From Phoronis australis (lineage: Eukaryota > Animalia > Phoronida): DNA of 64,000 bases. Positions 21,701 through 51,420 of this stretch are shown piece after piece. Below the pieces are notes generated by a model. That model ran no database searches. It had not been told where the DNA came from and saw nothing but the letters and a program-made list of their open reading frames with translations. Within the stretch, counting starts at the first letter, position 1. Each line of letters starts with the position of its first letter. The stretch covers positions 229,516 through 293,515 of the forward strand of contig NMRA01000202.1 in assembly GCA_002633005.1 (NCBI GenBank), in the 5' to 3' direction. The position numbers and the translations under genes were made by a program.

Positions 21701-24700
21701 ACATAATGTAATTTTCCACCTCAACAGTTATTAGCAGGAATTTTTGCTCTTAACAGAGTTAGCTTTCATGACGGGAAAATGTTTTGTCATTATTTTTGTC
21801 TTGTCCGGTATGTGCAAATACTGTACTGTCTGAGACACCTGATAATTTGAAGTGTGTTTTGAAACGCATAAATAATCAGCATTCACTGTACAATATTTTT
21901 GTACAGTATTCACTGTTACTATATCGTTGTACAGTATTCACTGTTACTATACTGTAGAGTATTCCCTGCATTATATTGTTGTACAGTATTCACTACACTA
22001 TATTGTTGTACAATATTCACTGTACTATATTGTTGTACAGTATTCACTGCACTCTATTGTTGTACAGTATTCACTGCACTACATTGTTGTGCAATATTGT
22101 TGTACTGTATTCAGTGTACAATATTGTCGTACAGTATTCACTGCACTACATTGTTGTACAGTATTTATTGTTACTATATTGCTGTACAGTATACAGTGTA
22201 CAATATTCTTGTACAGTATTCACTGCACTATATTGTTGTACAGTATTCACTGCACTATAATGTTGTACAGTATTCAGTGCACTATATTGTTGTACAATAT
22301 TGTTGTACAGTATTCAGTGTACAATATTGTTGTACAGTATTCACTGCACTATATTGTTGTACAGTATTCACTGCACTATATTGTTGTACAGTATTCGGTG
22401 TACAATATTGTTGTACAGTATTTATTGTACAACAATATAGTAAATTTAGTGATGTTTTCTTAAAAAATATTCTTAAACAATAACAATGATCTGTATGGAA
22501 TTTACTTAATTCAACCTAAATGTAAAGCAATATGTTTTGAATTCCAAAGCAAACTCAGGTTGATTTAAAACAATCTTTACTTTATATGTTACTGGTATGT
22601 CATGCTCCAGTAGATAAGGTTATAGAAGGAGTGATAAAACAAATAGCAGCAGACTTTTGAAGAATAGCTTAGTAAAAGCTATTTGACATCCTGATTGTAT
22701 CCAGCTTGAGAACAGATAATATGCTCTTCTGTATTTTATCTTTTGTATTTCACAAGTCTCAGCACTGATCAATAACAACAATATGCTAATGTACTTACAG
22801 CATTTAAAGACAAAAAGCCTTCTTATTGCCTTCCACGCATCATTAAAACCAAACTTTTTTCATTAGGAAAATGTAATTAAGAGAAGATTATGAACTCATT
22901 GAGGAAACCCCAGAGCAAACCAAAAATCTAATAAGCCAACAGGCATCATGGAAAATGAAAAACAAAAACAAAACAATACAATAGAAAAAAGTAAAGCATC
23001 CCAGCATCACAGGTCTTTCGGTCGCACTCTGCTTTTTTATATCAAATAAAGTTTGATCATGTTTTGACACCGTTGCTTCGGTATCAGAATGTACCTTAAT
23101 TTGACTTTTGCTAAACTTTACTAAAAAGGCACGGTCACGTGACCCAATCAGTGGCAGATTAGTAAAAAGTCAAAAATAGAATGCTGCAGAATTTCTACTT
23201 TCAGAAAATATGTACTTTTCAGAGTTAAATTTATAGTTTTTTATACATTTGGCAAAATAAACAAACTTGTCATTAAAGTCCTACATAACAACAGCTTGTT
23301 CTCATACCACAGTCAGTGTTTACTCATCAAACTGGCTGTGATAATGAAATGTTGATTCATTGCAGGCGCAAGTACTTAAAAATATGCCTCAGCATAGGAG
23401 GGTGATGCGCTGATTGTCCCTCCTTTCCAACTCAAGTAACGACTAAGCAGGCTGTTGCTTATTTAGACTGAATCAGTTGAACGACAGGTCAACGTCCAAT
23501 AGGGCAAAAATTTATGGTGGGTGTTGCATTAATTGTCAGTAAAGTCAATTGTATTATAGTTTTTGATTCATTCCTATTAAGCTGTAGTCATGAATTTATT
23601 TACATCACAAGAGGATGGCAGTGGAAATAGTGGTAGTGGCTGAGAGCATGTCCGTCGAAATGCGTCCAGAGGTCTCAACTGTCTTTTATTTTTTGGTAGT
23701 TGGTACAGTAACAACACCGACCACCACTAAATAAAATATTTAAAAAAATATCAAATGATTAATTCTTGAATAATAAATGATATAATTTACTATATCAGCA
23801 TCATGTTAATTGTTAACATTCACTGGACTTGCTAACAATGAATAATTTGCAAGGAGTACTTTTAATGATTTACGATTTGTCAACATAATTAAAGCTGCAA
23901 TTCACCTATTTAACTGTCAATGTGGAATTCTATGATGATAAGGATAATGAAACCAATCTCAAAACCATTAAGGCCTATCTGGATTTTCGTTTTTTGTCAG
24001 CTTAATGGAATAAAACTCACTTTTTATGTCTAAACTGTGGTGATGGTGCAAAATGAACCCATGCTTCCAATGAGACTGGCAGCTAAAAACAGAATTTTTA
24101 GGACAAATTATAGCGCAAAGGATAAAAAGGTAACAATACTGCTTATTGAAAAATTTTTAAAATATGCTGAAACCCGATGCTACACCCCATTCTTTACCTT
24201 TTCAGCAAAGCCGACCCCTAAACTTTGTATGGCCTTTGTTTTTCTCTCCGATAACTCTGGCACAAACTTGATTTTTTCTTTTTTCAAAACTGGAAGAGGC
24301 ACAGTGACCAAAACCTGAAAAGATAAAACACAAAGCATTGTGGGTATAGAATGCACGAGTCATGACACTCTTAGACTCTCTTCCATAGCAAGGATCAAAT
24401 TCTTAAATAATTTGATCAATATTTAATACTAATTTTGTTGACTTATAAGTAGTTTTTATAATACTTGATGACCACAGAATAATATTAAGTGCAAAAATGC
24501 CCAAGATGTTTGTTATCGAATCGTGACTGCATTTTTCAAGAATTTTTGAATTTTCAAGGAGATTACATTTTTTCACATGAAATTCACAAATTGTTTCTTC
24601 ATCTCTATTAGCGACAAACATTTCTTTGAGAGTTTCTTTTCAGGCCTTTATGGCTGATAATTTCGCTGTCAAAAATGAAGAGACCATCATTCCTTGAATG

Positions 24701-30700: not shown

Positions 30701-33700
30701 AGTCTCGTTAACACAGCCAAGTAGCCCTCAGGTAATATGCCGTGATCGCCACCGAACTGGGCGTAGGTCTCGTTATGGTCCCAGCTTAGCGCCGACACAC
30801 GGCTCAAATCAGACCCAAGGGCAAATTCAAGGTTACTGATGTGGAAGTCAATTAGATGCATCTCTTCTTCACTGAACTCGATGTGAGATTCTTCGACAAA
30901 CTGCTTATGCATATCATGAATTTTATCTGAAATTAAGAGGCAAATTTTTTCCCATAACATTAAAAATACACTTCGTCACCATTTCGCTGTTGATTTTGAA
31001 TTCTTAACCGAAATGCTCTGAGACGTACTTTGCTGATATTTTGATTTTCATACATAGATTGTTCTTGTTGGTTAACCTTCCCCTGGATAAATTGATGAAA
31101 AATCTTCAAATTTTGCATAATAGTACAACTGTCATGGCATTTCAGCATAAAACAGACTGTATCTTTAAGTTCCTCAAAAAGAGAAGCTACATTCTAAGGT
31201 CTATAGCCATTGCCGCCACAGAAACACTTCATAACCACATCATGCTTCCCCAGCTATGTCTCACATCCATTTCTAGGTCCATCCCTGATTACACTTGACA
31301 CTTGAATTTCGCTGTATTTATCCACGATGCCGCAATATCTATCAAGCACTTTTGTAGTCCAGCGATTTCATGCCACAGTAGTATGTTCCTTGTTCTTGCC
31401 GTATTCTATACATTAATTACTCTTCCTTGCATTACTCTATCCGTCCTTCCAATGCCAGCAAAGTATTACTGCTATACTGAGGACTGCAACTCCGATGGGA
31501 GAAAGTTGGATAAACCTTGACAAATGTCCATGGATGGGTGATGACACATTTGTCGCCAAGCCAACGTCAATCAAAGACAAGAAAATGCGGAGCGAGTGGA
31601 TAAAGCAAGTTCCTGGGGTTGATTTTGAACCAAACAGAATCCTCTTGCTTGAACATACCTTTCAATTCCGGTACTTTAAAATGGTTGAAATGGTGTATAT
31701 TTCCATGCCCATACACCTCAAAGGTTTCCGACATGACCTTCGAAAATGTGCCTGACATTCCAAAACGAGACCAATGAAAACAATGAGGCTTTCTTACCTC
31801 CAAGACAAAGGAGAGTCCTTGGCTATTGTTGGGTAATTCAGATTACTCATTGATTGAAGTTTTCTGTTTAGGTCAGTTGGCGCGAATCTACCATGTCTGT
31901 TTACAGAGCACATAGTTGGTGAGCTGACACATTGGTCTGACGACGTTCATCTATCATATATGGGACTTTTCAAATCATAACGTGTTGATGTTTAACCATG
32001 GTCTTAACCCTTATTTTGAGTTTGGAAGGGCAAAGTAGTCTGTACAGAAACTAGGCGTTTAGCTAAGCATCAAGTGATGAAAATTTATATCCATTGTAGC
32101 AGGAGGATTTGTAGAATTCATGAATAAATCAATTTCAAAATAACAACAATTACATCAATGAAAACATATGCTGAAAATAAAACACCTTATTGTATACACA
32201 CATGCACCGCCACACATGGTTCCTACAGATAAGTATTTAGGGTAGAATACCTAGAAGACTGCAGTCTTTGCTGATGTCCTGGTCTTTCCTCCAATCAGCA
32301 ATGATATCCAGCAGTGCGTTGAAATGAAAGTCAATACGCTTGTCCGTTTCACTTGATACAACACTGCCGTCGTCTGTCATCAAAACACATTTGCTATTCA
32401 AGGGACGTAACTCCAAGCCTGCCTGAAAGTTAATGAACAAAGAACTAAATGCAACTTGCAGCAAACGTATTGAGAGGAATTCAAATTAATTAAAAGTAGC
32501 ATTCTGAACATTGCAATATTAAGTTAAATGTTATTTGTAATTAATTGAAAAACATGGATCAGTGGAGGGCATGTAACAGATAAAGTGCTGGTGAACAATA
32601 GCTGTTTCCACGTGTTGCACAGTCATAGAAACCAAGAAATGCTAATATACCTCAAGTGATGCATCTATAAAACTATCTTCTGCTAGTAAGACACACGTAC
32701 AGATGTGATGTGCGCACACTCACCTGGTCAGCAGTGCAAAGGGGCTGTTTTTTGAAGGGACTATAGCCAAAAGTTAATTTTTTGACGTTTTAACTGGCTA
32801 CAGATCTGTCTGTTGGCTTCCAGTTGTAGTCAGATTTTTCCGACTTTTGGCCTTAGCCTGATTTTAAGCCACATGTCAACAGACAGTAGACTCTTCGAGA
32901 AAACAGCCCCCTGGTCACACGTTACTGTTATGAGGGTTGTTTCTAAACCCACTCTTTAACAGTAAGCACCACATACCCATTTTGCATACTCACCTGGTCA
33001 CACAATAGTGTGATGGGGTTGTTAATACACCCGTTCACCAACTGGGCACCCCTTCCCACACAAGCACCTAAACTCCAGTCATCCTCTATACGACCTCCGA
33101 CACGACCTCGTGCCTCAAGTACTGTGACCTAAAATAAATCAAGAGAGAACGTTTGACAGACCACCATCTCAGTATGCTCTAAAAGAGAAACGCTTCTTGT
33201 TAGTGTTTTCTGTATTAATTTCATTGTGCATTAAAAGTGAAACTGAATGTAGAATTAACAAGATGTTGTAAACTATTGCTAGACTGACATCATTGCAATA
33301 TATCAGGTGTCCCAAAAAGTGACCCACTTTTTGACAAGTCATTTCTCACCAATTTACCCACTGAATGTGTTCAAATTTTCACAATGTATTTGCAGGTGTC
33401 ATCAACAAGTCTATATTGTATAATGCATCTCAGAAAAATTATGGAAGTACTGTGAAATTCAAAACAGTGGGGTGAAAAATGCAATATCATAGTGACTTTC
33501 ATCATGTCCATACTGTGCTGGCATCTGTCAGTCAAAAAAATTGCCTACCTGGATCTCATGTCTACAGTTTTTTTATTGTCAGATCTGTCCTAAATTCCGG
33601 TTTGTAAGGATGGCTTTGAGTGAAAGCGATAAATTTAGGATTGAAACCTGTTTCAAGGAGAAAGGATGGAGCAGAACAAGAATCGTAAGAAGTTCCCAGG

Positions 33701-36700
33701 AAAAGGGTAAAGTACTGCAGCTGTATCATACTTATTGCTAATGTACGCAACACAGGGTCTGTTGGATATAAAAGTGGCAGTGTGAGACCTAAGACTGCAT
33801 GTTCAAAAGAAAACGCGGATCGTGTTGAGGAACTGATTCAATCCCAGGAGGCGAGCCGGGAAACACACGCCTCTGAGAGAAGTCGCAACTGATTTACAAC
33901 TTAGTGAACAAGTCTTGTGTGCAAAGAATGGCAGAAAAGTGGAGTTAAAACTTCATGAGAATGTGGGTATCACAGAAAGATAAAAATGTTGGAAGGAAAC
34001 TCGATGCTGCCAGTCATCACATGCTAAACGTGATATTCCTCATTACTCAGCCTCTATACCGCTACAAAATCAACACAACTACAAAATGCGTCTCAAACAT
34101 CTCCACAACACAAAAATATGATTTAAATCTCCTAACACACCATTAAGTGCATCAGCGAATAAAAGCCCGTCAAAACAGTACTACCTCTCACCAAGGTTGG
34201 CAAACCCTTCCAAGACTGGGTAGCTTCAATGTCAGAATATTTGTTTTTCAACAAGCTTCTACACCAGAAACCAAAGGCCATCAAAACAGGAAAATTCAAA
34301 GAAGTATCTGTTAGAATAGTCTACAATGCCTATGTTTAGGCCACAATCAGTGAGGAAGTGCAAAATTAAATGTAATATTAAGTAATAGTTTCTAAAAAAA
34401 GAACTCATTTTCACAAAAAAGTCTCGTAAATTCAAGAAATAGTAACCAGCTCAAATTGCGACAGGCTTCATTGTTTAAAATCGACATTACTTCCCTGTAA
34501 TACCTTACTCCCATTCCCTTCTCCACACAAAATCTTGCAGTTCATACCACTGTTAATAGGCAGCCCTACATGTGACTAGTACATTTTGTATTGATCATNN
34601 NNNNNNNNNNNNNNNNNNNNNNNNNNNNNNNNNNNNNNNNNNNNNNNNNNNNNNNNNNNNNNNNNNNNNNNNNNNNNNNNNNNNNNNNNNNNNNNNNNNN
34701 NNNNNNNNNNNNNNNNNNNNNNNNNNNNNNNNNNNNNNNNNNNNNNNNNNNNNNNNNNNNNNNNNNNNNNNNNNNNNNNNNNNNNNNNNNNNNNNNNNNN
34801 NNNNNNNNNNNNNNNNNNNNNNNNNNNNNNNNNNNNNNNNNNNNNNNNNNNNNNNNNNNNNNNNNNNNNNNNNNNNNNNNNNNNNTTATGCAACACTAAA
34901 CTGGTGTTAACACATATAAGAAAATTGATGATTTTTAAATAAAAAGTATGAGGAGTAAGATAAACAAGTTCCAATATTCACTTGACATAGAAGTATAAAA
35001 GAGTTTGTGGAGACAGTTTGAGATTCATAGATCCTTATAATTGAAAAAATGTTCATTGAAATTAATAGACACATGGTGAACAGAGACACCTGGTGAATGC
35101 CAAAAGTATTGTTCACAGGCTACTTTAATTTTTGACAGTATTGGACAAGACAACTAGTTCTTGTCTGTCAATCATCTAAGTTCTTAACAGGTCCTCCTGG
35201 AGGCAGTTTGTTTGCAAGTGTTGGATTTTGTATTTTAACCTATTAAAAATAATTAAAAAATTATGGGTCATGGGTTGGAGAAATAAATGAAAATTATGGG
35301 CGGTGGGTACGAAATAAAAGTGCCTTCCCCCCCCTCCCATACAGATTTTGCTGGAACAGCCCTATGAGATAAGGGTTATCATCCACTTTAAAACCATGTT
35401 TGACCAAATAAAAAATAAATTAACTAACTTCGATTTACATCACTTTTTCAGAGGCGGTGTGACCTAGACGGATAAGTGTCCAGTTCTTGTGGTCAAGGTC
35501 ATGGGTTTGAGACCAACTGAGTCACACTGCTAGACCCTCGAGTCCAGTCTCTAGCTCCTCAGCTCGGTTTTAACTAAATATTACTAAAGCATAAAAATGG
35601 TTCCAGGTAATCATTACTATAGGCCCACTTGAGCGGCCAGACCGTCTGCAATTATTAAGATGAGAAGCGATTTGTGGGCTTGCAAAGAACTGACAGTTGC
35701 TATTGTTCGCAAACATAATAAAATAACCCGACACGAAAAGCCAACTTGTTGAGCATGGTTTCGGCAATAACGAATGTCAGTTTTTTCCTAGATAAAAATC
35801 ACCTTTTACTTAAAAAGAAACAAGCAGAGACCAATTTCATAACGGTAAGTTGTCTATATCAAGTTCACAAAAGACAGGTCAGTAGGGGCTTTGATGCATT
35901 TCTGCACCAAGACAGAAAAACAAACTAAATGGCAATAAGTAATTAAAAATTGTGCGAGTAAATATTACACGTGAAATTTGCATACTTCATGGAATCTGGC
36001 CTACGTGTAACTTCATAGAAATATGGGCTGATCTCCATACATTGATCACGGGATAGCAATGCTCTCCAGTGTCCATATCAAGATAATAAAGAAAAAGTTT
36101 GATCTAATCTTTACCCCGATTCATTCTCAACCCTGCATTCAAAAACTGAAAACCAATTTTCCATTTCTTTTGGTGAAAAGTGCAAAAACCATGTAAGCAA
36201 AGTTTGAAACACCACAGTTTGCCAAGCCACAAGTAAAAAACAACTCCTGAATTGTTTTTGCTCATTTAAGGTGGATTTTCTTTTTTGAAAAAATGTGCAA
36301 CTTGACGCAACACATTGTGACCAATAATTACAGAAGGGCACAAAAACGACTTCTGTGAGTAAATGGAAAAAATCATTGTACACTGCAGAATAGCATGTAG
36401 TGTCTTACACCAAAAAGATTGAGAAGCAATATTTGATAAAAATTATTTATTACAATTTTGAAATTTCAGAAAAATATGACAATGAATTCTAAAATCAAGA
36501 CAAACAACCATTGAAAGTATATCAGTTTACCACTATCACAAACCTACTATTCTAAGAAATTCTTAAGATTATTAACCACACACTCGACAAGAAATCTTCC
36601 AGGTTTCACCTCATTTGTTTTAGTACAAAGTACAATACACATCTACACAACACCTTAACCAACATAATATCAACTGTTCAAATTTGGACACAATTTTATA

Positions 36701-39700
36701 GTGAAAAGTGAAAACTTCAGCGTACACTGTTCCCATACATGTTAAAGTCTTTTGTCGATGTCCAAATGTTCTTATGACTTAAAATGTACAGTTTCAGAGA
36801 TATAATACACTCAAGGAGTTCCTTACGATTAGGACTTAATAGTGAAACTTTGGGAACAAGCATTTCTTCTCATGTATCTGCTGACGCATGAAGGTCTCAC
36901 ATTTTACACTCTTCTAGTAACCTTGGAAACACAATTTTATCAACCAAATTTAAACCATAAAATCATCCAACAAATTATTCCTTTTACCACACATTTTGCA
37001 TGATCCCCTGAAAAATGTTTATTCCACAGATTACGCCAATGAAACGGATCATGATGAGGAATACTCTCTTTGTTGCCAATTCATAACCATAGAAACGGAT
37101 CATGATGAGGAATACTCTCTTTGTTGCCAATTCATAACCATAGAAACGGATCATGATGAGGAATACTCTCTTTGTTGCCAATTCATAACCATAGAAACGG
37201 ATCATGATGAGGAATACTCTCTTTGTTGCCAATTCATAACCATAGAAACGGATCATGATGAGGAATACTCTCTTTGTTGCCAATTCATAACCATAGAAAC
37301 GGATCATGATGAGGAATACTCTCTTTGTTGCCAATTCATAACCATAGAAACGGATCATGATGAGGAATACTCTCTTTGTTGCCAATTCATAACCATAGAA
37401 ACGGATCATGATGAGGAATACTCTCTTTGTTGCCAATTCATAACCATAGAAACGGATCATGATGAGGAATACTCTCTTTGTTGCCAATTCATAACCATAG
37501 AAACGGATCATGATGAGGAATACTCTCTTTGTTGCCAATTCATAACCATAGAAACGGATCATGATGAGGAATACTCTCTTTGTTGCCAATTCATAACCAT
37601 AGAAACGGATCATGATGAGGAATACTCTCTTTGTTGCCAATTCATAACCATAGAAACGGATCATGATGAGGAATACTCTCTTTGTTGCCAATTCATAACC
37701 ATAGAAACGGATCATGATGAGGAATACTCTCTTTGTTGCCAATTCATAACCATAGAAACGGATCATGATGAGGAATACTCTTTGTTGCCAATTCATAACC
37801 ATAGAAACGGATCATGATGAGGAATACTCTTTGTTGCCAATCCATAACCATAGAAACGGATCATGATGAGGAATACTCTCTTTGTTGTCCATCCATAACC
37901 ATAGAAAACAACTTGGCTTTTACGTCAGCCTTAATACCAGGGATTGTGATTCTGCCAAACTCTCTGAACAAGCTATGAAAGAATACCGAGTCATCATTAT
38001 CAACCTCATCTTCGTTACCAAGATAATTACGTCGGTTACCTTGGTGATACGTGTCTAGAGACAAGGTTGAAACACTGTCATGACGTAAACTGTATGTATC
38101 GTAAACAGCTGGCATGTCATGACGTTCTTCACCATTCACAGTGTTGTCGCTGTCATGACACAAGTTGTTCGACACAAAAGCAGCATCGCCACAACAAGTA
38201 CAATGTGAACCATGACTTGCTATAGTATTAGGCTCGGGTTCAGCCTTAACAATGACATTGTCTTGCTGACACGTGTCTGACAGGGTAGAAGCATGATCAC
38301 AGCACTGGCTCTGCACCTCAGCAACTGTACTGCTGGAATCATGAGGATGAATATCAGAAATGCTGACACACAACTTTTCATGGCTTGTCTGCTGCAGATT
38401 GTTAGTTTGCCCGTATTGCTCAAAGGTGTCACTAGCCAAAGTACCGTCGCTTTCGTTGCTGACAACCGCACTTAAAGCCAACGTACCTATTCTCTGAGTG
38501 CAACTCAGGTCAATTGGTAAATCATCTCCAGGATTATCTTTACTGCCCGGGAGAACCTTGTTTATTTTTTCCACCACTACTTCACTAGATGATGGAGGCC
38601 CTTGATTGAGACCAAGTGCTTCCCCGATACAGGCCTCGTGCACAGGTTCTTTTACCAATACGTCTGATTTGTTCTTCGACGCAAGTTTTCTAGACGTTCT
38701 TCCATGTCTACGAAAGGTCCGTATCTTCTTCTGTCCTTTAACAGCAGACCTTGCCTTTGTGTTCTTCACTTCCACCAGTGCCAAATTCTTCTTCACACAC
38801 TTTCGATTTCCAGAAGTTTTCAACGTTACGCGACGCCTAAAACTGGAGTTTCTTGTGAAATGTAGCAAGCCAGACCCATTTGCACCCCAGTCCCCTGGTT
38901 CCTTACCATCTGAGAAATGCAATGGCTTTTGAAGATTTGTTTTCATACGATTCTTTCTCCTGGCAAATACTGGTAACATCACCACACGACATTGTTCAGT
39001 GACAGAATTTTGACATTCGACATCCACTCTAAAGCTTTTTCCTTTCGACAATGAGGTCACACAATCTTTTTTCTGTTTTTTCTTCTGTAAGTCATTTTCA
39101 GAAAATCGTTTGATAGAGGATTTCCGATTGGATCTTCTCGTCTGAAAACACATTAACAAGGGATTAACAAACACTTAAGATAAGATTTAAATTCAAAGAA
39201 CACCAAAAATGGACAATTTAAAAAAAAAGTTCATTATCATCCAAAGAATATTTATTTCAAGTTAAACAATCGAGATTTCAGGATTCCCCCAGCAGGTGGT
39301 GATATCAGGACTTTCACAAATAAGTATCGTGTAATTAATACTTCGTTTTCATCTTATAAATCTGACACTCGCTAATTTGACCTCAACCTGATTAAGGTTA
39401 CGCGGAACTCTCAGCACCACCATCATCAAAATGCCGGAGAAGGAATCTGATACTCGACCATGCTTAAGTTTTGCACAGAAAGCAAATAATGAAAACTTAC
39501 CCTAAGATCTGTTAAGTTTTCGGATGCTTAAAATGGTCGCAGGAAGTCCATGGGCAAAAAATTCACCCTACTCTAGGAGACTTTACAACATTCATGCCAA
39601 AAGATGTCACTACAGGTCAAATGGCGCATCGATTCCTTCTCAGGCAAACTATTCACTCGGCAGAAGGGAATCATGAACACCTCAGTACAGGCCAAAAATA

Positions 39701-42700
39701 TTGAGACACGACAGCCCATCTCCATCACGAATCTTCACATCTCATCATTCCAGCTACTACTGATGGCTAAATCCACAGCCACTTCGTCGTGACTTGCGTT
39801 CAAACGTCATGAACGCAAATCATTTTGTTAGATTATTTTTGGCATGTAATGTACGCTGTACACATCAGTAAGGTTCCACGTATCTATGGCAACAATCCAA
39901 GAATCACTACAAACACAGAATTTTCAAAAAAGATAAAGGTTGGCTCGACAGAAAATGTCTTTGCTGTTGGCCACTGATAAAATGGGATCGGTAACTTGAG
40001 CTACCATCCACAGGACTGAAAGCGAAATTCACTAACGTGTGATGGTTTGTGTATTCAAAATCTTTTTCAGACGTTACTTTTAGCCTCATTTTAGTTAAAA
40101 ACCTGCCGAATGAAATTTTAACGAAAACCAATCATGTAAAAAATTAATTGCAATGATTTTCTGTCAACATGCTATCAAATCAACTATTATCAGAAAAAAC
40201 AAAGTATTTTTTAAGTTTAGATGTTTCTTCAATTTTGGATGGTGCACAAACAAAACATCCGGCACAGTTGAATGACCCTGAACTTCATATTCTATGAAAT
40301 TACAAGTATATTTTGAACATAAAAATATCAACAATTTGGCGTGGGCAATCTGATTTATGGCCAATCTCATTTGAAGGCAATCTCATTAGTGTCAAAGAAC
40401 TTCCATCCGCCTTTCAGGAAATATTTACACCACTCTGTCCGTGGCACGGTATGAGATCGTGCTGCCCCAGACACGCTTGCAAACTCCCACTAAGAAAATT
40501 TTAGCGACATCTTTTGACTGATGAGATTTATTTCATGTTATAACATATGGTCAGTGCAAAGGATTGATAGAGTACATACTTCCAGACACTGGACACTAGG
40601 TGTCACCTCAGGCAGGATTCAAGATGCTTAAATTCACTGAGTTTCTAATAGAGTTAAACTACATTTTCTGAAAAACTATGGGTCAGAACTAACCCATATT
40701 TAGTTTCAGGAGACAAGAGCGTTAAAAAGAGTGCAGGCGGCCTAATCCTTTTGCGATACATCAGGCGTGCTTCGGCCGCAAGGCTGGACCTATTACACTA
40801 ATCACCAAGAGGATTGATGTAATACATACTCTGTTGAACTCTGGTGGTAATATGCCCGTAGTCGGAATCTCTCGGATGAGACCAGTGTTGACTAGGCCTT
40901 TCCTTGTAAGGAACATGATGATGCGGTCCACCTCCATTATGCAACGGATGCGCACGAGACCACGGCACAAGACAAACGGGGCACACTTCTCGACAGTTAA
41001 CCAATCCTGGGAAAACAATGCGTCCGTATTACGGAGAACCTCCTTGCAAACACCCACATCCCATTTAATGATGTAATGATTAGTACATATTTCAAAGACA
41101 TGCTTTTAAGAAATGGTGACAGAGATCGCAGGTTTACACAATATTTGTCAAAAAGCCGTGACACGCAAATCACCATGCACTATCAAAATAGTGTAATATA
41201 TGGATTTAACGAACTCCTTTGAAACTATTATGAAATAAACTTGAGATCGATGACATTCAAATGCATTGTTTTATTCCCTAGCCAAGATATCCTTAAACAT
41301 TAAGTGTTAGCGATAAGATTGTAGTTGACAAAAAACTCTGTAGTTGGCATACCACAAAAGCCAACAGCATTCAGACAAAATAGCCCAAAATCCCCCATCA
41401 TGACACCTTGGCAGAAGCCAAATTCATCTTCAGAGTAGTCTCCCCTGATGACTGAGAATGAAGGGGAATTAACAACAAAGTTAGTAAGGTGTCTAAGTCA
41501 TTATGTAATTAGAATTTTACCCTCATATATTGGCTATTATTCAGTTTTGCTGTTGATATAAATAGCTATCATGACAGAGAAACGATATTTTGTCCGATTG
41601 CTTTCGACCTGTAGTGTAGTATCCAGTCACAGTGTATTGAAGTGGATGTTGTGAATATTGTTTATCAATACCTCAGCAGCATTGATGAACATGTCTGTGA
41701 AGTGTGGGTGAAAACAATTAGCTACGATTACGTCTTGGAACATTTAGCTAAACAATGGGGGCCTCTTTAAGCGAGGCTTTTCAATACCTGCGCTCCTTTT
41801 CCAAGCTCAATACAACTTAAATCATTGCATGCAATACCTGGTGAGAACTGTTCCATAATGTAACAATTATGTTGCGTAGACCGATGTACATTTGTTGCTC
41901 TCTGAAAAAATAAGCAGTTCACCATGTAACATTCTGTACGTTCACCCATTGCACAGAAAATGAACTTGTAAGCACAAACACTTAATTTTGACTAGCTAAT
42001 CTCATTCATCTCCAAAACGACACACAAGACATTCTTTCAGTGTGTTAAAACAGTCCAGTGACCAAGTTTGCAGATTCTCAGGTGAGATATCTCCTGTAAA
42101 TGTGGACCGGGATCAAATACCATGGCTGGAACCAAAACGCACTAGAATGAGTCTCTAAATCCAATGGGTGGACTCTGTAAACCACACTGGCCAGAAATGA
42201 AACAGTGCATCCAGATTTACTGCAACTCACAGGAGATTGGCCAATCTGAACTACACATACATCCAAACACAACAAAAGAAACACAGAATTCTAACATGGC
42301 AAATAAGCGAAAGCGGATTTCATGATTGCCATCGCTCATGACTGGGAATTAACCACCAGTCACACAAGCTGAAGTCTCTATTCCTAAAGCTAGGATTTTG
42401 CTCTTACCAGACTTCTTTGATCACAAACAAATGATACGTTGTTACGATTACTTATGTCTACTGAGGTTCCCTGTTAAAAGATTTAATTACCTGGAGAATT
42501 CCGGAAACTGTTCAAGCTCGTCAGCTTCCATCATATCCGGACGGAGACACATGGCTTTAGTGTACTCATCTGGCTGGACAAAGGGCTGAAAGTTGGCACC
42601 AAGTTTGACCTCTGAAAGCACATCCAAAACACACTGAGCTAATGCTAATGCTAAATAACAAAGTCTGAAAAATCATTAAATATGATCGTAAGGAAAACAA

Positions 42701-45700
42701 TACGTATTGAGTTTACAATATTCATTGCCTCTTTCAATGATAATAGTACATTTTTGGGCATCCTGACCACAGTAAACCCGACAAGAGCAACGTGGGCAGT
42801 GTGTATAGAGGGGATGAACATTATTTTCCAAATTTCCTGAACTTAATAGGTATCAAGACAAATGCTAAGAAAAACATTATTGCCGCTTGAGGACTTGATT
42901 TGACCCCAAAATCCACATCAGATGTACACTCCTCAACACACGCACAAATTTCACGAAGATCATCCATCAAGGAGCTAGGTAGATATTACTCAGCCACAGG
43001 CAAAAAAAAATTGCCACTAAAAGAGGCCACAGCACTCAAGACATGTACGAAAACCATAGTCAGCCATGTACATCCCAGCAGAAACAAATGTGTCAAATTT
43101 CCTTAGTGGTTTGGCCAATAGAGGGGGCCACCAAAAGAATGACTAGAAAAATCATAACAGTCACCAAGTGGCTTAAAATATAGCAAATGTGCCTGAAGAT
43201 GAAATGGTGTTATTGTGTCTTTAACAGAAAGCTGTTTGCCAAATTTCAGAAAAATCCATCATGGAACTCCAAAGATAGAAACAAAAAGGGAATAAAGCTA
43301 AAATTGCCACCAGAGATTTTGGAGATACAGCAGCTGCGGATGCAGGACAGGGATGACAGTGCAACGTGGCCACATGTTTGTTATGCCAACAAACACTAAT
43401 CTCAACTAGCGCACCTGCGTTCTTAGCTGTTGGCATGGCACTTGTTGCACTCATTCCCACTCCATCTGGGAAGTACTGTGTCAGGTAGGGGGCAGCAGGT
43501 GAGCTCCTCAGGAGAGGCGGTTGCACCAGTGTGTTGATCCAAAATGGTTCCAGTGCTTTCTGTGCTCTCTGGAAAAAATTGATGTCTGATAATTCTTGGT
43601 TGGGATACAGTTGTTCAGAAAAATTGAACACTTTGACAGAAGTCCACAAGACTCTGTTAAATTATGACAAATTTTTAACACATTTATTTGGTTTAAAGGT
43701 TATCTCAGGCCTAATTTAGTGGCCTCCATTCTACCTCCTATATTGATTCGTTCATAAAGAACTGACAGCTCCTTATATTTTGAGACAATGCTCAGCACAT
43801 ATCATGACAGGCCATGACAAGCCAACTTGTAGAGCCTGGCCACAAATGATAACAAACTGTCAGTTGCATGAAAGCCTTGTAATAGATCAAGGAACAATTT
43901 GTGGCCAATTTCATAATGGTAAAGGCTCAAATCAAAACTAATTTTGCTTTTTTTGTGAAGAGGGGGGAGGCAGTTTGTAGCCGCTTTAACTAAGAATTTT
44001 GGGAACTTCTTCAAATCAAACTGAACTTCAACCTCATAGACAGGAATTGAGCACTTCAGCCACACTGGGTACTGCAGTAGCGGACAGAAATAACATGTTT
44101 AACATGTTGCTGCATAGCAACACTGCTAGTTATTGTCTTGAGTAGCACAACTTATTTTTGGAGGGCATCTCGATCGTCAACTAGCAATTGGCTTAGATCA
44201 CACAAACCGACAGTAACATTTCAGCTGCTAAACCCACCAACTCAAGGGTATGCCTTCGAACAGTCTTAAACTGAGGCTGTAAGACTACTACAACTTTATA
44301 TACCGATAACATTTGTGCAAAATTCACAGCTGTTATGAACTTGTACGTTATACAACAGGCACACAAACAAATTCAGAAAACCAAGCTTTTTTTCTAAATC
44401 TCAGTTAGCGGAAACTACAAGTACTTCAGTATCATACCTCATCTTCAGGGGCATCACAGTAACCCGTTCGGTCCTTGTTCACACTCTGAAAACGAAAAAC
44501 AACACAGACTTCAAATCTGGCGTTTCAGCTAACACAACCAACACTGGGGAATACAGATAACATCCAGCCAACAGGGTATTGATCAAAAGCATCCATGGGT
44601 TACATAGTTTTACTTAGATTGTACAATGCTCAGTCCGTTCCCAAAACGTTTGTTCCCACTTTCAAGATCATACTAGGCTGTGTATAGGGGCATCACAAGC
44701 AAATTATTTTGTGTTCATTTAACTTGTAGCCAAAAATCAGATTTTCCTGGTCCCTGTTCAAACCGTTTAAACTTTGTACATCAAGGCTTGAAACTGGGCC
44801 CACTCATGTAACTCATTCAGTTTATGTAGGACCCATAAAAATGAACAAATTTAGACAACATCATAACTTGGAAATGGGTGACCAGATTCAAATGAAACAT
44901 TCAGACACTAAATTTTGTGCACTGTTCTTCAAAATGACGTAAAAGATAGTTTTCAAAATGTTTCACCTTTTATATTATCGGAATAAAAAATTGGAGTTTT
45001 ATGACTTTCATGAAAAAAAATAAAGTTGTATAAAACAATTAAGAAAAGTGGAAGAGCATTTTTGAGATTTCAGTTTCATCACTTAAGTTAAACGAAATTT
45101 GAGTGCGTTGTGCTGCATGTATCAGACTGAGTGCACTTTCCTCATACCATAAACCACGGGAAAACAATCAGCAATATCTGAGGACTTTTCACACTAAACA
45201 CAATGGAGGATGACTATTGCTGCGTTTCGTTGTCCAGGTTTTACACTTATGTAATGACTAATAAATACTCGTAACTCGTAATAAGCTTTAACAAATCATC
45301 AGGTAGTGTTTGTGGGAGTTCTAATTTGACACTTTAACAACTGGCAGGGCTGTTTTATGGTGTTTTTGATATGAAACTCGTGATTTTAAAAACTTTAAAA
45401 GCGATTTACGACATTTCCAAACAGCTTCACTTGAGCTAGTTGCATGGCAACAGGCTATGGGAGCAGATGACGGTCAGGAGAGAGCTTTATGTCAAAGGCA
45501 CAAAGCATACACACCTGAGTTTTACTGTTGGACACCATGCCACACTGAAATGTGCGGACAAACTCCTCGGTTAGTTCTAAGTCCTTGGACAGCTGGCGCC
45601 ACTTGCCACAATCTGGTCGATTACACTGTATCCAGTAGGGGAGGTACCGGTCATTCATGAATGTCTTGATGCTGGCCTCTGTCCGGCCCACCGATGACCA

Positions 45701-47504
45701 CTCCTTCTTCCACTTGCTCAGCTCAGGATATCCATCTCGGTGACTAAGACATTTAGGAAAGTTGCAATGGGGTAAGCATTGTCCAGAAAATTTTGACAGT
45801 TCCCTAACTGAACAACCGGACATCACACAGAGACAAAACATTGCTTTAACGTCTCGTAAAACAATGGTCGCTGTTGTAGTTAATGGATACTTTTGTGTTA
45901 AGATTGATGCATATTTGTATTCATATCTGATTTATCAGTATCATGTTGACCACGCAACACCGACAGACAGAAACAAAAGAGACCCCTGGAAAGCGACTTT
46001 CGACGTGAGTCATAAATTTTGTCTTGCACTCTGCCGAACTATTTCCAAACAATAATTTTATTCCTTTTGAGCAAAAGAACAAGGTTGCTGAAAACACCCA
46101 TAATTACATGCTCAGATAATTTGTACAAATTATCTCTAAACTACAATGTCCTAACAATTACATGTAAAAATGTTAATTAATAATTTCCAAACAGGAAAAA
46201 AGTCAAAATTCCTGACTTAGTAACTTTTCCATGAAACAGGCCTCTATTGATTAATCTGATAGCAGAGACACCTATTGCTAGTAAATTCTAATAAAACTAA
46301 CTACAGAATACAAACATCACATGATCTGATGTTAAATGACAGTGAATATCACCAAAGCCTGTTGGATTTCACTCACCTTCTGTAGAAATAGTCAAAGCAG
46401 TCATTGCAGAAATGTTCCCCTGGCGACAGATGATACCAACGGGAGGTCATGCCACTCCCGCAACACCTAAAATGGGTCAAAGTTGAAATAGAACAGCTGT
46501 CTAGCTCAGCATAAAATCAATAACTTATCAAGCAACTCCACAAAGTACCACTTAAGGAAAACTACACTATTACTTGAATTGCTATTAGAATGCGGACCCT
46601 ATTTGTACAACCAGGTGTACTAAATTAGCTCCACTGTCATCTGCTGCAACAAGCAGACACTTGTAAATTTGCAACAGAAATTTCCTTGGAATGGAAGGTT
46701 CAAATATGAAGTCCTAGAATCACTGTACAAGTAATGTCGTAAGTACAAACTGTCCTGATTTGCCTTAAGCAGAGGCTAATCTCCAACAAAGTTCCAACTC
46801 ACAGCATTGATTTTCAAGCTTGACGAAAGTAAGCAAAGCTTGTTGGGGCAAAATACTAACTCCTTACTACGATGGGTCAAAACAGGTTGGGGAAAACACA
46901 ATTACACTAGGTGTTTTGACCAGACACAGAAGGGTGCCTACATTATAACTAAATGCCAAACTTAAAGAGGTATCAAAGTCTACTCCACAGCAAGACTTCA
47001 ATTATTTGACTTGATATGGGCCGAAATACACTCACTGATCAAGACATATGAAAGCAGGGGTAACATTGCTTGTGTTTTCTACCAATGTTCATACTATTTC
47101 ACACTACTAAAGTGAACACATCTCTACCAATGTTCATACTATTTCACACTACTAAAATGAATACACCTCTACCAATGTTCATACTATTTCACACTACTAA
47201 AGTGAACACATCTCTACCAATGTTCATACTATTTCACACTACTAAAATGAATACACCTTTTTATGGCCACACTATAGAAATAGTTTTATACTTACTTTTC
47301 TGATGCATTAGCAAAGCAGATTGGTACGTCTGCAGAACAACCGGAGCGATCACATTTCCTCACTTCTTTCACATCACCAGACGGTGTTGCAGGTTTGGGC
47401 TTTTTCTTCGCTTGCCTAACCCTTGGAGTATCACCCTTTACCTGTTGCGAGTCTTCTTCTTCCTCAATGAATTTTACAGGTCGCTTGCGCACTCTTGTTG
47501 ACAT
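15651..47504 (-). CDS. KDM1B: Lysine-specific histone demethylase 1B (LSD2/AOF1), multi-exon gene: C4H2C2 zinc finger, zf-CW, SWIRM and amine oxidase domains
   Basis: GT-AG exons with consistent phases: 47504-47296, 46466-46377, 45743-45515, 44485-44438, 43568-43415, 42611-42491, 41901-41838, 41006-40830, [one exon not visible], 33128-32994, 32422-32251, 30926-30667, 29358-29281, 24314-24198, 19792-19667, 18401-18276, 16741-16589, 15749-15651. The visible exons sum to 2358 nt (785 aa plus stop). LSD2 motifs recognised: [88 protein letters not shown]. Confidence 0.95.
16589..16741 (-). CDS. KDM1B: KDM1B amine oxidase exon ([13 protein letters not shown]...AYSF...IYFAGE)
   Basis: YS and FAGE motifs; 153 nt. 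Confidence 0.94.
18276..18401 (-). CDS. KDM1B: KDM1B amine oxidase exon ([17 protein letters not shown]...LQKLFPDV)
   Basis: ttctcag/GTAGGT, 126 nt, phase 0-0. Confidence 0.88.
19667..19792 (-). CDS. KDM1B: KDM1B amine oxidase exon ([14 protein letters not shown]...FGHV...[13 protein letters not shown])
   Basis: 126 nt, phase 0-0, canonical sites. Confidence 0.93.
21885..22440. repeat. About 27-bp minisatellite (TTGTACAGTATTCACTGCACTATATTG), about 20 degenerate units
   Basis: Direct reading; gives the repetitive YIVVQYSLH and YCCTVFTAL ORFs. Confidence 0.95.
24198..24314 (-). CDS. KDM1B: KDM1B amine oxidase exon ([39 protein letters not shown])
   Basis: VTVPL and AI..LG.G..EK motifs, ending in the conserved active-site Lys; ttttcag/GTAAAG. 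Confidence 0.93.
29281..29358 (-). CDS. KDM1B: KDM1B amine oxidase exon ([26 protein letters not shown])
   Basis: tgatag acceptor, GTGAGT donor, 78 nt, phase 0-0; fills the expected V..I.Y....V.V.T..G segment. Confidence 0.85.
30667..30926 (-). CDS. KDM1B: KDM1B amine oxidase exon ([35 protein letters not shown])
   Basis: Conserved LSD-family motif; phase 1-0. Confidence 0.95.
31452..31670 (+). pseudogene. Frameshifted THAP-domain relic, probably from a DNA transposon
   Basis: [21 protein letters not shown] / [25 protein letters not shown]...DFEPN fits the THAP C..C...P...R..W...F.P pattern; frameshift near 31515; the final C/H ligands are degraded. Confidence 0.6.
32251..32422 (-). CDS. 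KDM1B: KDM1B amine oxidase exon (AGLELRPL...[21 protein letters not shown])
   Basis: LSD2 [12 protein letters not shown] motif; phase 0-1. Confidence 0.93.
32741..32910. mobile_element. About 170-bp MITE
   Basis: Imperfect TIR GGGGCTGTTTTTTGAAGGGACTA / TAGACTCTTCGAGAAAACAGCCCC. Confidence 0.7.
32994..33128 (-). CDS. KDM1B: KDM1B amine oxidase exon ([17 protein letters not shown]...[21 protein letters not shown])
   Basis: LEA..R.GGR and GAQ flavin amine oxidase motifs; tttag/GTGAGT. Not in the ORF track. Confidence 0.95.
33303..34030 (+). mobile_element. Truncated, frameshifted Tc1/mariner-superfamily transposon (left TIR plus transposase N-terminus)
   Basis: TIR-like CAGGTGTCCCAAAAAGTGACCC; from the ATG at 33610: [21 protein letters not shown]...[30 protein letters not shown] (degenerate GRPR-type linker), with frameshifts. 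Confidence 0.75.
34599..34885. other. Assembly gap (287 N) within KDM1B
   Basis: Run of N. Other gaps are at 4411-4523 and 62845-63314. Confidence 0.99.
35451..35560 (+). mobile_element. Degenerate tRNA-derived SINE head
   Basis: A-box-like TGACCTAGACGG and B-box-like GGTTTGAGACC at tRNA spacing; no intact cloverleaf. Confidence 0.45.
37018..37023 (-). terminator. Putative polyadenylation signal for the intronic terminal exon
   Basis: AATAAA 18 nt past the end of the minisatellite, followed by GT-rich sequence (tgtgtggt). Confidence 0.45.
37041..37907. repeat. 51-bp minisatellite, about 17 units
   Basis: Unit GAAACGGATCATGATGAGGAATACTCTCTTTGTTGCCAATTCATAACCATA: 14 identical 51-mers, two 49-mers and one founder unit overlapping the ORF end. 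Confidence 0.97.
37861..39141 (-). CDS. Large terminal exon inside KDM1B (426 aa plus stop): basic region, PIDLS motif, VKAE SUMO consensus, C-terminal BESS-like motif; probable alternative last exon
   Basis: Uninterrupted 1.28-kb ORF in AT-rich DNA. The acceptor gttttcag|ACG at 39141 is phase 0, matching the 40830 donor. TGA at 37863-37861; AATAAA at 37023-37018. Confidence 0.75.
   Translation of the reverse strand, partial: TRRSNRKSSIKRFSENDLQKKKQKKDCVTSLSKGKSFRVDVECQNSVTEQCRVVMLPVFARRKNRMKTNLQKPLHFSDGKEPGDWGANGSGLLHFTRNSSFRRRVTLKTSGNRKCVKKNLALVEVKNTKARSAVKGQKKIRTFRRHGRTSRKLASKNKSDVLVKEPVHEACIGEALGLNQGPPSSSEVVVEKINKVLPGSKDNPGDDLPIDLSCTQRIGTLALSAVVSNESDGTLASDTFEQYGQTNNLQQTSHEKLCVSISDIHPHDSSSTVAEVQSQCCDHASTLSDTCQQDNVIVKAEPEPNTIASHGSHCTCCGDAAFVSNNLCHDSDNTVNGEERHDMPAVYDTYSLRHDSVSTLSLDTYHQGNRRNYLGNEDEVDNDDSVFFHSLFREFGRITIPGIKADVKAKLFSMVMDGQQREYSSS
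40830..41006 (-). CDS. KDM1B: KDM1B SWIRM C-terminal exon ([22 protein letters not shown]...[11 protein letters not shown]...PEFNR)
   Basis: Acceptor ttcccag, donor GTATGT, 177 nt, phase 0-0. Confidence 0.93.
41838..41901 (-). CDS. KDM1B: KDM1B SWIRM exon ([21 protein letters not shown])
   Basis: SWIRM Y...RN.I..LW motif; 64 nt, phase 2-0. Confidence 0.9.
42491..42611 (-). CDS. KDM1B: KDM1B pre-SWIRM exon ([33 protein letters not shown])
   Basis: Phase 1-2 exon with canonical splice sites. Confidence 0.92.
43415..43568 (-). CDS. KDM1B: KDM1B linker exon ([10 protein letters not shown]...[24 protein letters not shown])
   Basis: LSD2-type PPLL..SPAAP.L..Y.PD.VGMS motif; acceptor tttccag, donor GTGCGC. 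Confidence 0.88.
44438..44485 (-). CDS. KDM1B: KDM1B 48-nt exon completing zf-CW ([16 protein letters not shown])
   Basis: ttttcag acceptor, GTATGA donor; supplies the last Cys and the C..PED motif; phase 0-0. Confidence 0.85.
45515..45743 (-). CDS. KDM1B: KDM1B zf-CW exon ([15 protein letters not shown]...[18 protein letters not shown]...FQCGM)
   Basis: CW-type zinc-finger signature; acceptor cttag, donor GTGTGT. Confidence 0.93.
46377..46466 (-). CDS. KDM1B: KDM1B zinc-finger exon ([29 protein letters not shown])
   Basis: tttag acceptor, GTGAGT donor, 90 nt, phase 2-2. Not in the ORF track. Confidence 0.93.
47079..47258. repeat. 45-bp tandem repeat x4 with alternating A/B variants
   Basis: CTACCAATGTTCATACTATTTCACACTACTAAA followed alternately by GTGAACACATCT and ATGAATACACCT. 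Confidence 0.95.
47296..47504 (-). CDS. KDM1B: KDM1B first coding exon (MSTRVRKRP...RQAKKK...[22 protein letters not shown])
   Basis: Acceptor ttgcctgtag before 47511, ATG at 47504 in ACCATG context, donor GTAAGT at 47295 (phase 2). Confidence 0.88.
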
Positions 47505-49243: not shown

Positions 49244-49926
49244 TGTACAACGTCATGGGTTGAACCCAAGTCGTTCGCCATACTGTTCGGATGAAAGACA
49301 AAGTGTATAGAGTGAAAAGAAAGCAAAGTACATATAGCGTCGAGAAGGTTCGTAGAGGGATCAAAAGATGTGTTTCCGGAGGTTGCATTAACAGCAGCCA
49401 GGCGGAGAACGTCTCGATGTTCCGAAGGACACCAAAGTTGCGCAGAAGTGGCATCGCATCGTGCGCCGAAAGAGAGTGTGGGACGTCACCGTGGACCAAG
49501 CGATTCGGTCCGGGGCCACTCTGTGTTAGTCTGCCCACATTGAGGACTCGTGTTTCGACTCCAGTCACAGGAGACGTTACGATGAAGGCCTGGTTCAATA
49601 AAGGACAATATTTATCATTCAGAAACATCAGCTCTCAATTCAGGATCGTCTGTTGGATGACTGGGTTGACTCGTCAAGCCCGAGGCCGCTTCTCTCACGG
49701 GAGGATCCAGTTCGTAAGGCTCAAAGTAGAAAAGTACGCAGCCGGAAGCACATTAAACTTGTTCTCGCTTTCGTGCAACCCCCTTTCCTCATCCTGGCCA
49801 CCATTCCCGTACGTTTAATTATAGTATTCGTTCAATTCTTGCTCGTAATCGTTGCTTTCAAATTCCCTGCTCTCCGCCGTTGTTCAATGCTAGTCACTGA
49901 TCTCGTGTTCAACCCATGATGTCACA
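49244..49926 (+). mobile_element. LTR-like element (about 680 bp), possibly a solo or 5' LTR
   Basis: TGT...ACA ends with inverted TCATGGGTTGAAC/GTTCAACCCATGA; GC-rich relative to flanks; AATAAA at 49597; followed by TGGCG (PBS-like). No target-site duplication seen. Confidence 0.5.
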
Positions 49927-50324
49927 TGGCGGGAAATGTGAAAATTGGCAAAATTGAAAGAAAAATCTAAATTTCGAGCTAATTACACAAAATAAATATG
50001 GGTTTAGCTAAATTTTAGGTCATACATTTAGTCTGTGGTCACCGGTAATTCAAAATGTGCAAAAATCCATGGTGTGTACTGTTTAAAAGTCTACACATAA
50101 CCAGTTTCAGCGTCCCACGTTAAGAAAACGCCCAACTCGCAATTGGTTGTTGGATATAATCTTAGCTCACCAATTCAGATTTGAGGTTGCCAATTTTTAG
50201 AACCACAGATGGCCGATAGGTGTCGCTTACAATGCAGCCCATTGTGATGCTTGCGCTGCCGCCAGGCGGCGGACCACGTCTAGTAGGTCACAACCAAAAA
50301 CAGTGCACAGAAACGAGACTGTTA

Positions 50325-51420
50325 CAGCCATACACTTTAAATAACTCACAGAGCATGGTCTGAACTTCTAAGTTTCATTTGTACCAACCCAACGCGATTT
50401 TGCTTGAGTCACAGAACACTTATGGTTGGTGGACAATTTTCGTCCATACGACCACGCGCTTTAAGTGACTAAGAGAACGCGTGGTGCAGACGGATAATTT
50501 TTTCCATACGACCATATGCTTTAAATGACTCAGAGAGCGTGGCAGGGGCTGTTCATTTTCATTCGTACTGACTCGTCGTGATTTTGCTTGAGTTACAGAA
50601 CGCATATGGTAGGGCGGACAATTTTCGTCCATATGACCACGTGCTTTAAGTGACGAAAAGAAAGCGTGGTCCAGACGGATAATTTTTGCCAATACGACCA
50701 CACGCTTTAAATGACTTAGAGAGCGTGGTCGGAGCTGTTCATTTTCGTACGTACCGACCCATCACGATTTTGCTAGAGTCACAGAGCGCTTATGGTTTGG
50801 TGCGGACAATTTTCGTACATACGACCACGCGTTTTAAGTGACATAGAGAACGTGTGGTCCAGACGGATAATTTTTGTCCATACGACCATATGCTTTAAAT
50901 GACTCAGAGAACGTGGTCGGGACTGTTAATTTTTGCCTGTTCTGACCAGACACGATTTTGCTCGAGTCACAGAACGCTTATTGTCAGGCGGACAATTTTT
51001 GTCCATATGACCACGCACTTAAAGTGACTTAGAGAATGCCAGACAGATAATTTTTGCCCATACAACCATGTGCTTTAAATGACTCACAGAGCGTGGTCTG
51101 GGCTGTTAATTTTCCCGCTTCGATCCGGCGAGATTTTGTTCGAGTCACAGAACGCTTATGGTCGGGCAGGCAATTTTCGTCCATACGACCATGTGCTTTA
51201 AATGACTCAGAGAGCATCGTATGGGTTGTTAATTTTCATCCGTACTGACCCAACACGATTTTGCTCGCGTCACAGAGTGCTTATGGTCGGGCAGACAATT
51301 TTCATCCATTCAGCCACCCCTTCCATTAGCAGCAAGGTCGGCGAACAATTTTCAGGCAGGACCACCACATTTAGGAGCGTGGTCCAGGCGGATAAATTTT
51401 ATCCATAATTTGAGTCAAAG
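50325..51420. repeat. Tandem array of about 185-bp units built from related ~60-bp subunits
   Basis: GATTTTG(C/T)T..GTCACAGA recurs at about 50396, 50580, 50767, 50954, 51132 and 51257; CCATACGACCA...TTTAA.TGAC recurs within each unit. Confidence 0.9.

Follow-up and report, generated by a model that had tools for sequence, protein, structure and literature searches.

The window analysed here, a 64,000-nucleotide stretch of contig NMRA01000202.1 of the phoronid Phoronis australis, carries on its minus strand a gene for the H3K4 demethylase KDM1B/LSD2, which we delineated by tblastn with two gastropod homologues and manual splice mapping. The intron placed directly after the last SWIRM-encoding exon of this gene contains a long open coding exon on the same strand, hereinafter exon X (Table 1). 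Reading from the genomic sequence alone, we lean towards regarding exon X as an alternative last exon of the exon-trap kind typified by CSB-PGBD3, whose use would give a catalytically dead co-repressor scaffold. We further advance, tentatively and as the more doubtful claim, the fuller proposal that the LSD2 locus switches via last-exon choice between an H3K4 demethylase and a lineage-specific, enzyme-free repressor that combines a zinc-finger/SWIRM head, a BESS-like dimer tail and a CtBP hook.

We confirm that exon X is a genuine and intact 426-codon open coding exon. Its frame (39174–37861, minus strand) runs for 437 codons from stop to stop, with 426 of them lying between the acceptor at 39141 and the TGA, and the other five frames across the same interval hold 17–43 stops. 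At the stop rate of the flanking intron, 437 stop-free codons have a chance probability of 4e-13 per start, and the longest open reading frame (ORF) in the remaining 15 KDM1B introns is of 121 amino acids (aa). The codon bias is also exon-like (0.031, against −0.19 to −0.31 in 15 intron windows). When scored with a matrix built from the 16 acceptors of the window's KDM1B gene, the exon X acceptor reaches 11.4 bits, ranking first among the 418 AG sites in 40800–33130 and outscoring 14 of the 16 true KDM1B acceptors in a leave-one-out comparison. The donor after 40830 and the acceptor before 39141 are both in phase 0, and the upstream exons would therefore join exon X in frame to give a protein of 790 aa (364 + 426). 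This junction falls between the end of SWIRM (residue 360 in the homologue P0012) and the Rossmann motif (from residue 380), and the strongest donors within exon X (7.3–7.8 bits) are out of frame. An earlier note on this stretch had described an intact 426-codon exon on the KDM1B strand between the SWIRM and amine-oxidase exons, with a phase-0 acceptor at 39141, a TGA and a downstream AATAAA, and had predicted a 790-aa join without the demethylase domain; the open frame, the exon mapping, the phases and the exon sums all bear this anatomy out. Its interpretation of exon X as an alternative terminal exon thus stands as far as the acceptor, phase, stop, AATAAA and domain boundary are concerned.

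The candidate polyadenylation signal at 37023 lies 837 nt beyond the exon X stop, a distance that shrinks to 25 nt when the intervening minisatellite is collapsed to one copy; with AATAAA occurring at a density of 0.75 per kb, such proximity would arise by chance about 2% of the time by our own, post hoc arithmetic. The first 51-bp copy of this minisatellite supplies the last 15 codons and the stop of exon X, and the remaining copies fill the candidate 3′ untranslated region (UTR). The coding copy is the most divergent of the array, and two copies are 49 bp in length. The array may be a young, length-variable 3′ UTR repeat or may have been mis-sized by the assembly. Two ORFs of 275 and 287 aa over 37817–36954 were rejected as genes, being the minisatellite read in open frames.

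The exons of the host gene form two groups flanking this intron. The upstream group comprises eight coding exons from 47504 to 40830, which together encode 364 aa without a stop and include the zinc finger, zf-CW and SWIRM. The zf-CW is recovered by Pfam (E 1.5e-8), the N-terminal zinc finger/zf-CW region matches human LSD2 chains (E 1.5e-25), and the exon at 41006–40830 matches the human LSD2 SWIRM (E 5e-14); Pfam returned no SWIRM match when the KDM1B exons were searched singly. This N-terminal part aligns to residues 14–378 of P0012, in which SWIRM occupies 284–360. The downstream group comprises nine amine-oxidase exons from 33128 to 15651, encoding 421 aa and open to the stop. The oxidase is tower-less and shows 50–51% identity to LSD2 homologues over 414–420 columns with 2–4 gaps. 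The gene thereby resembles human LSD2 (4GU0, 7XE1) in its zinc finger, zf-CW, SWIRM and tower-less amine oxidase, at 49–51% identity to its best homologues; unlike KDM1B/LSD2, the candidate isoform would be without the oxidase domain and would carry an added PIDLS. As the best KDM1B homologue of the window gene is only 49% identical, the compared KDM1B proteins include no close relative. In a tree of 18 of 120 homologues, hand-picked to span phyla and with the missing exon coded as unknown, the window KDM1B falls outside the deuterostomes and molluscs sampled, next to Lingula but without a resolved position. A further candidate exon of 45 nt (41451–41407), which would have given 379 aa upstream, was dropped, homologues aligning without it.

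An exon of about 25 aa bearing the flavin adenine dinucleotide (FAD)-binding GxGxxG motif was found in none of the six frames of the sequenced window (best score 18.5, against self scores of 105–108). The FAD-binding stretch falls between the SWIRM and oxidase exon groups, and since it is absent from all sequenced frames and the expected intron contains an assembly gap of 287 N, the missing exon probably sits in that gap (34599–34885). Four annotated fish isoforms (P0017, P0018, P0038, P0063) skip precisely this stretch, which is therefore a separate exon in fish. The possibility that the motif is hidden in exon X or in read-through of donor 40830 was ruled out (scores of at most 9.0). Even without the FAD exon, the flanking KDM1B exons, both in phase 0, still join in frame, which would give a dead enzyme. 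Read-through past donor 40830 (40829–40527, minus strand) adds 22 residues before a stop, with an AATAAA at 40532; judging from the sequence, this is possibly a second, shorter isoform made by intronic polyadenylation.

The exons that the short form would retain also bear on how it could engage chromatin. The earlier note had treated H3K4me binding by the LSD2 zf-CW as established and had inferred a reader-only scaffold, a claim contradicted by PMC5453194: with its cage occupied by SWIRM residues L340 and I343, the LSD2 CW domain is reported there not to bind the H3 peptide. PMC6188137 states only that CW domains as a class are able to bind methylated histones. Using an offset of 46 to human LSD2 numbering, which fits all five residues named in PMC5453194, we found L340 and I343 of the human protein conserved without change in the retained SWIRM exon, which would leave the aromatic cage blocked and not open; because these cage-blocking residues are kept, no H3K4me reader is expected of the short form, and the reader-only scaffold finds no support. 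A second site, in the CW-SWIRM linker of LSD2, is reported to bind H3 residues 19–26 with the help of NPAC (PMC5453194). The retained KDM1B exons keep matches to human E277 and R285, and Y273 is replaced by Val.

The 426 residues of exon X itself yielded no fold in a full-length structure prediction (predicted local distance difference test score, pLDDT, 36), and are hence predicted to be disordered. The strongly basic N-terminal segment likely serves nuclear targeting or nucleic-acid contact, and is followed by an acidic region at aa 171–380 (10 K/R, 32 D/E). Two short motifs stand out: VKAEP, which we take to be a SUMO-type site on the consensus psi-K-x-E-P, and PIDLS. The latter is described in PMC12236740 as the canonical peptide bound by CtBP. 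In shuffles of exon X (n=20,000), PxDLS arose in 0.8% and psi-K-x-E-P in 1.0%, and both together in 2 of 50,000.

The C-terminus of exon X is predicted to form two helices (aa 386–396 and 405–423; pLDDT ~40–54 in the full-length model and 62 in a fragment model). Two copies of its last 57 residues modelled together as a homodimer scored 0.65, against 0.00 for the best of three controls, with contact agreement between runs of at least 97% and pLDDT of at least 76. The score mark for such models was reached by 21/30 pairs and 0/23 single chains in a microbial benchmark and by 17/29 pairs (animals 7/16) and 0/30 single chains in a eukaryotic one; it was reached by just 1/7 eukaryotic pairs lacking an older solved relative, and the benchmark was made up without disordered or predicted chains. 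The top Atlas match for the tail is a BESS cluster, at 0.79 (140/256 features) and 0.76, the family being assigned to 32% of its members, which serves as a lead only. Pfam BESS (PF02944) gave no match: exon X as a whole matched no family at E≤1 and its four pieces none at E≤10. The Pfam check suggested in the earlier note, run on exon X and these pieces, thus assigns no family, and its BESS label survives as a modelled C-terminal two-helix module without Pfam membership. A fold search with the tail returned no matches at E≤0.001 (21 at E≤10), and PDB sequences none at E≤10. On the strength of the models, we consider it likely that the tail acts like a BESS motif though failing PF02944 membership.

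These features suggest the following mechanism. At donor 40830 the spliceosome would either take acceptor 39141, followed by cleavage near 37000, or continue to the FAD-binding exon downstream. The resulting short form of 790 aa would keep two zinc fingers, the linker and SWIRM, and would lose the entire amine-oxidase domain. It would reach chromatin not via zf-CW, and instead via the basic segment, the second H3 site of the linker and the partners of the LSD2 N-terminus. CtBP would bind to its PIDLS, and dimerisation through the terminal hairpin would present two such motifs. A single locus would in this manner encode an eraser and a non-catalytic repressor, each at the other's expense. According to one proposal (PMC11241480), the LSD2 zf-CW region mediates repression that does not depend on demethylation, and the short form would retain the N-terminal region so implicated. 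Judged by sequence and model, a reader, or a dominant negative that competes for substrate, fits less well than a co-repressor scaffold with a CtBP motif and a predicted dimer tail.

Several observations weigh against this reading. Exon X is without homologue: there were no matches at E≤0.001 among 1.84 billion protein representatives, none among 4128 candidates of 747–2130 aa, and none confirmed among 377 and 26 pattern matches from metagenome and viral contigs. For want of a homologue, neither a ratio of nonsynonymous to synonymous substitution rates (dN/dS) nor a conserved splice site can be offered. All 120 listed proteins (of 341 KDM1B homologues of at least 617 aa) carry PF01593 and none carries PF02944, in a profile census that covers forms of at least 617 aa and leaves shorter ones outside; likewise, all 173 fetched KDM1B homologues of more than 300 aa align to the oxidase part. 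The motifs were chosen post hoc among 7 patterns, looser versions of which arise in 4.1% and 27% of shuffles. The codon bias of exon X scarcely sets its frame apart from the other two (0.006 and −0.014) and falls to −0.169 across its first 71 codons. Exon X contains in-frame donors that score 5.4 and 5.3 bits, where true donors span 1.2–12.4 bits, though with a smaller training set they reach 2.7 bits at most. The CpG observed/expected ratio (o/e) of 40829–39175, at 0.73, is above that of all 13 other intron windows (0.35–0.67), and a 9.7-bit donor lies upstream of exon X at 39501; these two features would accord with either a nested transcript or an insertion of younger age. Finally, solved structures of LSD2 have the N-terminal part packed against the oxidase domain, and the truncated part may therefore fold poorly.

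Additional searches for relatives of exon X or of tail-swapped KDM1B forms were also negative within their scope. Against 173 KDM1B proteins exon X gave a single chance match (E 7.1), and a PxDLS string of any kind is present in 4/173 KDM1B homologues, none in an exon-X-like tail. Of 82 pattern matches to KDM1B loci of relatives in metagenome contigs, none was confirmed. No swapped-tail form appeared among the 71 rows listed for the cluster members of 10 KDM1B homologues, a weak test since such a form would cluster apart. Rfam over 33000–41100 gave no matches. Searches for a coding 5′ exon of another gene, the lack of which favours the last-exon reading, found no relevant Pfam match in 73 minus-strand ORFs (of at least 38 aa) in 52600–39175, a scan with three chance-level matches (E 0.004–0.03) that shorter or decayed exons could escape; 46 further ORFs of the KDM1B intron had no relevant Pfam match either, and neither exon X nor the upstream ORFs contain a MADF domain. 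In the literature searched (titles and abstract starts, with subscription papers and supplements outside) we found no description of such an LSD2 isoform; the words 'isoform' and 'splic' were not found in the available text of the LSD2 review PMC11118440. As a separate observation, KDM1B proteins of Babylonia (P0011, P0131–P0133) bear a C-terminal extension of ~350 aa beyond the oxidase with a weak repeat match to PF12815, another lineage-specific LSD2 tail in which the enzyme is retained.

The alternative that we take most seriously, while holding it unlikely, is compatible with the last-exon reading: exon X would belong, as coding exon, to a separate transcript that is nested in the intron on the same strand and driven by a promoter there. 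This could take the form of a non-coding first exon ending at 39501 joined to a product starting at ATG 38979 (372 aa), or of an unspliced transcript starting at ATG 39153 (430 aa), both of which keep PIDLS and the tail, and the result would be a small adaptor that binds CtBP and pairs with itself but has no LSD2 part. Among the 116 GT sites in 40829–39142 none scores higher as a donor than that at 39501 (9.7 bits, compared with 3.5 bits for donor 40830), and as an in-frame stop lies 9 codons upstream, this donor cannot close an in-frame coding cassette, an option thereby ruled out. The CpG o/e upstream of exon X, 0.73 against 0.45 in other introns, points the same way; however, it is below the 0.8–1.4 of the main promoter region (49–54 kb), and 40829–39142 holds no TATA or YY1-like motif, in contrast to the two YY1-like motifs of the main promoter. 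Moreover, the 54 open codons that precede the first internal ATG in phase with the KDM1B donor would be unneeded by a nested gene, and its product would lack a folded targeting domain.

We regard it as rather improbable that exon X is a young, undecayed insertion that splicing seldom, if ever, incorporates into a functional product, its source being either part of the accessory gene of a mobile element or the last exon of a MADF/THAP-BESS-type gene, copied by duplication. The orphan status and the weakly frame-specific codon bias of exon X would agree with this, as would the raised CpG over 41000–38000, which might be expected of sequence that has spent only a brief time in a methylated gene body, and piggyBac elements are known to show such exon-trap anatomy (PMC2268245). 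Yet no transposase or DNA-binding ORF is present in the KDM1B intron, with Pfam and the search of 1.84 billion proteins showing no transposase likeness in exon X or the flanking intron ORFs; the 19 inverted pairs in 33100–41100 are short and AT-rich and include no convincing terminal repeat; the 64-kb window contains no further copy of exon X; and its CpG o/e of 0.71 is like that of the oxidase exons (0.69). The least probable account, to which we give very little credence, is an assembly artefact, or the use of part of exon X as an internal cassette spliced to the FAD exon, with no truncated isoform at all. The 287-N gap, the missing essential exon and the 99%-homogeneous array in the same intron could be cited for it, along with the in-frame donors within exon X. 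Against this, there is no N between 40830 and 37000; a cassette would not maintain an open frame through a structured tail up to a stop, nor an AATAAA; and the FAD motif lies a constant 22 residues ahead of the motif of the next exon in 81/81 homologues with both motifs matched, a long spacing after SWIRM being flagged in just 2/120 fetched homologues (P0099, P0116).

In its anatomy the proposed last exon most closely parallels CSB-PGBD3 in ERCC6 intron 5, where a large intronic exon, immediately preceded by an acceptor and followed downstream by an AATAAA, serves as an alternative 3′ terminal exon that joins the N-terminal exons of a chromatin enzyme in frame (PMC2268245). Unlike exon X, an orphan disordered tail without transposase likeness, the PGBD3 exon encodes a piggyBac transposase, has been seen as mRNA and protein, and is conserved over 43 million years (PMC2268245). 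A functional parallel is KDM5B-NTT, by which a demethylase locus gives an inactive isoform with chromatin-facing domains that may oppose or complement the enzyme; it arises, however, by N-terminal truncation from a second start site (available text of PMC11241480, which does not name a KDM1B isoform of this kind), whereas the KDM1B short form would replace the C-terminal enzyme half with 426 new residues that bring motifs of their own. MADF-BESS regulators such as Stonewall and its kin share with exon X a long disordered linker and a short C-terminal two-helix module with a predicted role in protein contact (PMC10680830); in contrast, exon X has no MADF, no Pfam BESS match and an Atlas score below 0.9, and its N-terminal module would be the LSD2 ZF-CW-SWIRM. 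An exon-trapped, dead chimeric isoform would thus belong to a known mechanism class, and the product with an LSD2 head, CtBP hook and dimer tail would be new, in one genome so far.

Were the splice real, it would constitute a natural separation of the catalytic and non-catalytic roles of LSD2, which are described as poorly understood (PMC11241480), and would exemplify how a chromatin enzyme can gain a new repressor tail through exon capture. If the fuller proposal is true, LSD2 would gain its own co-repressor link without a Tower domain, and the demethylase-independent repression proposed for its N-terminus would exist in nature as a form encoded separately. The reach is limited to one invertebrate genome, the examined annotated KDM1B proteins of other animals not showing the exon X form. 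For annotation, there is the warning that a homology-built gene model would miss both exon X and a gap-sited FAD exon.

Table 1. Coordinates of exon X, the KDM1B exons and associated elements, counted from the first letter of the window.
Feature	Position	Strand	Remark
KDM1B coding exon 1	47296..47504	-	ATG at 47504
KDM1B coding exon 2	46377..46466	-	zinc finger
KDM1B coding exon 3	45515..45743	-	zf-CW
KDM1B coding exon 4	44438..44485	-	end of zf-CW
KDM1B coding exon 5	43415..43568	-	linker
KDM1B coding exon 6	42491..42611	-	holds matches to human E277 and R285 (Y273 = Val)
KDM1B coding exon 7	41838..41901	-	SWIRM
KDM1B last SWIRM exon	40830..41006	-	donor phase 0; keeps matches to human L340 and I343
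Strong donor after 39501	39495..39503	-	possible first exon of a nested transcript
Exon X acceptor, phase 0	39142..39161	-	in-frame ATG inside at 39153
Exon X, candidate alternative last exon of KDM1B	37861..39141	-	426 codons + TGA
Basic segment of exon X	38632..39141	-	aa 1–170; 46 K/R vs 13 D/E; predicted disordered
PIDLS, canonical CtBP-binding PxDLS motif	38503..38517	-	aa 209–213; local pLDDT ~32
VKAEP, psi-K-x-E-P SUMO-type site	38236..38250	-	aa 298–302
C-terminal helix-loop-helix, BESS-like	37873..38004	-	~aa 380–423; predicted homodimer
Minisatellite	37041..37907	.	51 bp x 17.1 copies, 99% alike
AATAAA, candidate polyadenylation signal	37018..37023	-	GT/T-rich sequence after it
N assembly gap, 287 N	34599..34885	.	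probable site of the FAD-binding exon
KDM1B oxidase exons 1–5 of nine	33128-32994, 32422-32251, 30926-30667, 29358-29281, 24314-24198	-	
KDM1B oxidase exons 6–9 of nine	19792-19667, 18401-18276, 16741-16589, 15749-15651	-	

Beyond these features, a VPS13-family gene (Pfam VPS13_N E 5e-58, 56552–57709, plus strand) lies head to head with KDM1B across a CpG-rich stretch, which contains two motifs, at 52410 and 52980, that we take to be YY1-like. KDM1B likely has a non-coding first exon ending at 52374, with an upstream ATG. The first KDM1B intron contains a degenerate 188-bp tandem array of ~4.8 copies (50323–51316) and, antisense to the gene, a 184-aa ORF (49264–49818, plus strand) with a CpG o/e of ~1 and no Pfam match; its cysteine pattern presumably recalls a THAP finger, and it is perhaps a mobile-element relic. 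Two further intronic minisatellites were found, one of 45/90 bp at 47078–47258 and one of 27 bp in 20.6 copies at 21877–22432, the latter yielding spurious ORFs of 195–203 aa.

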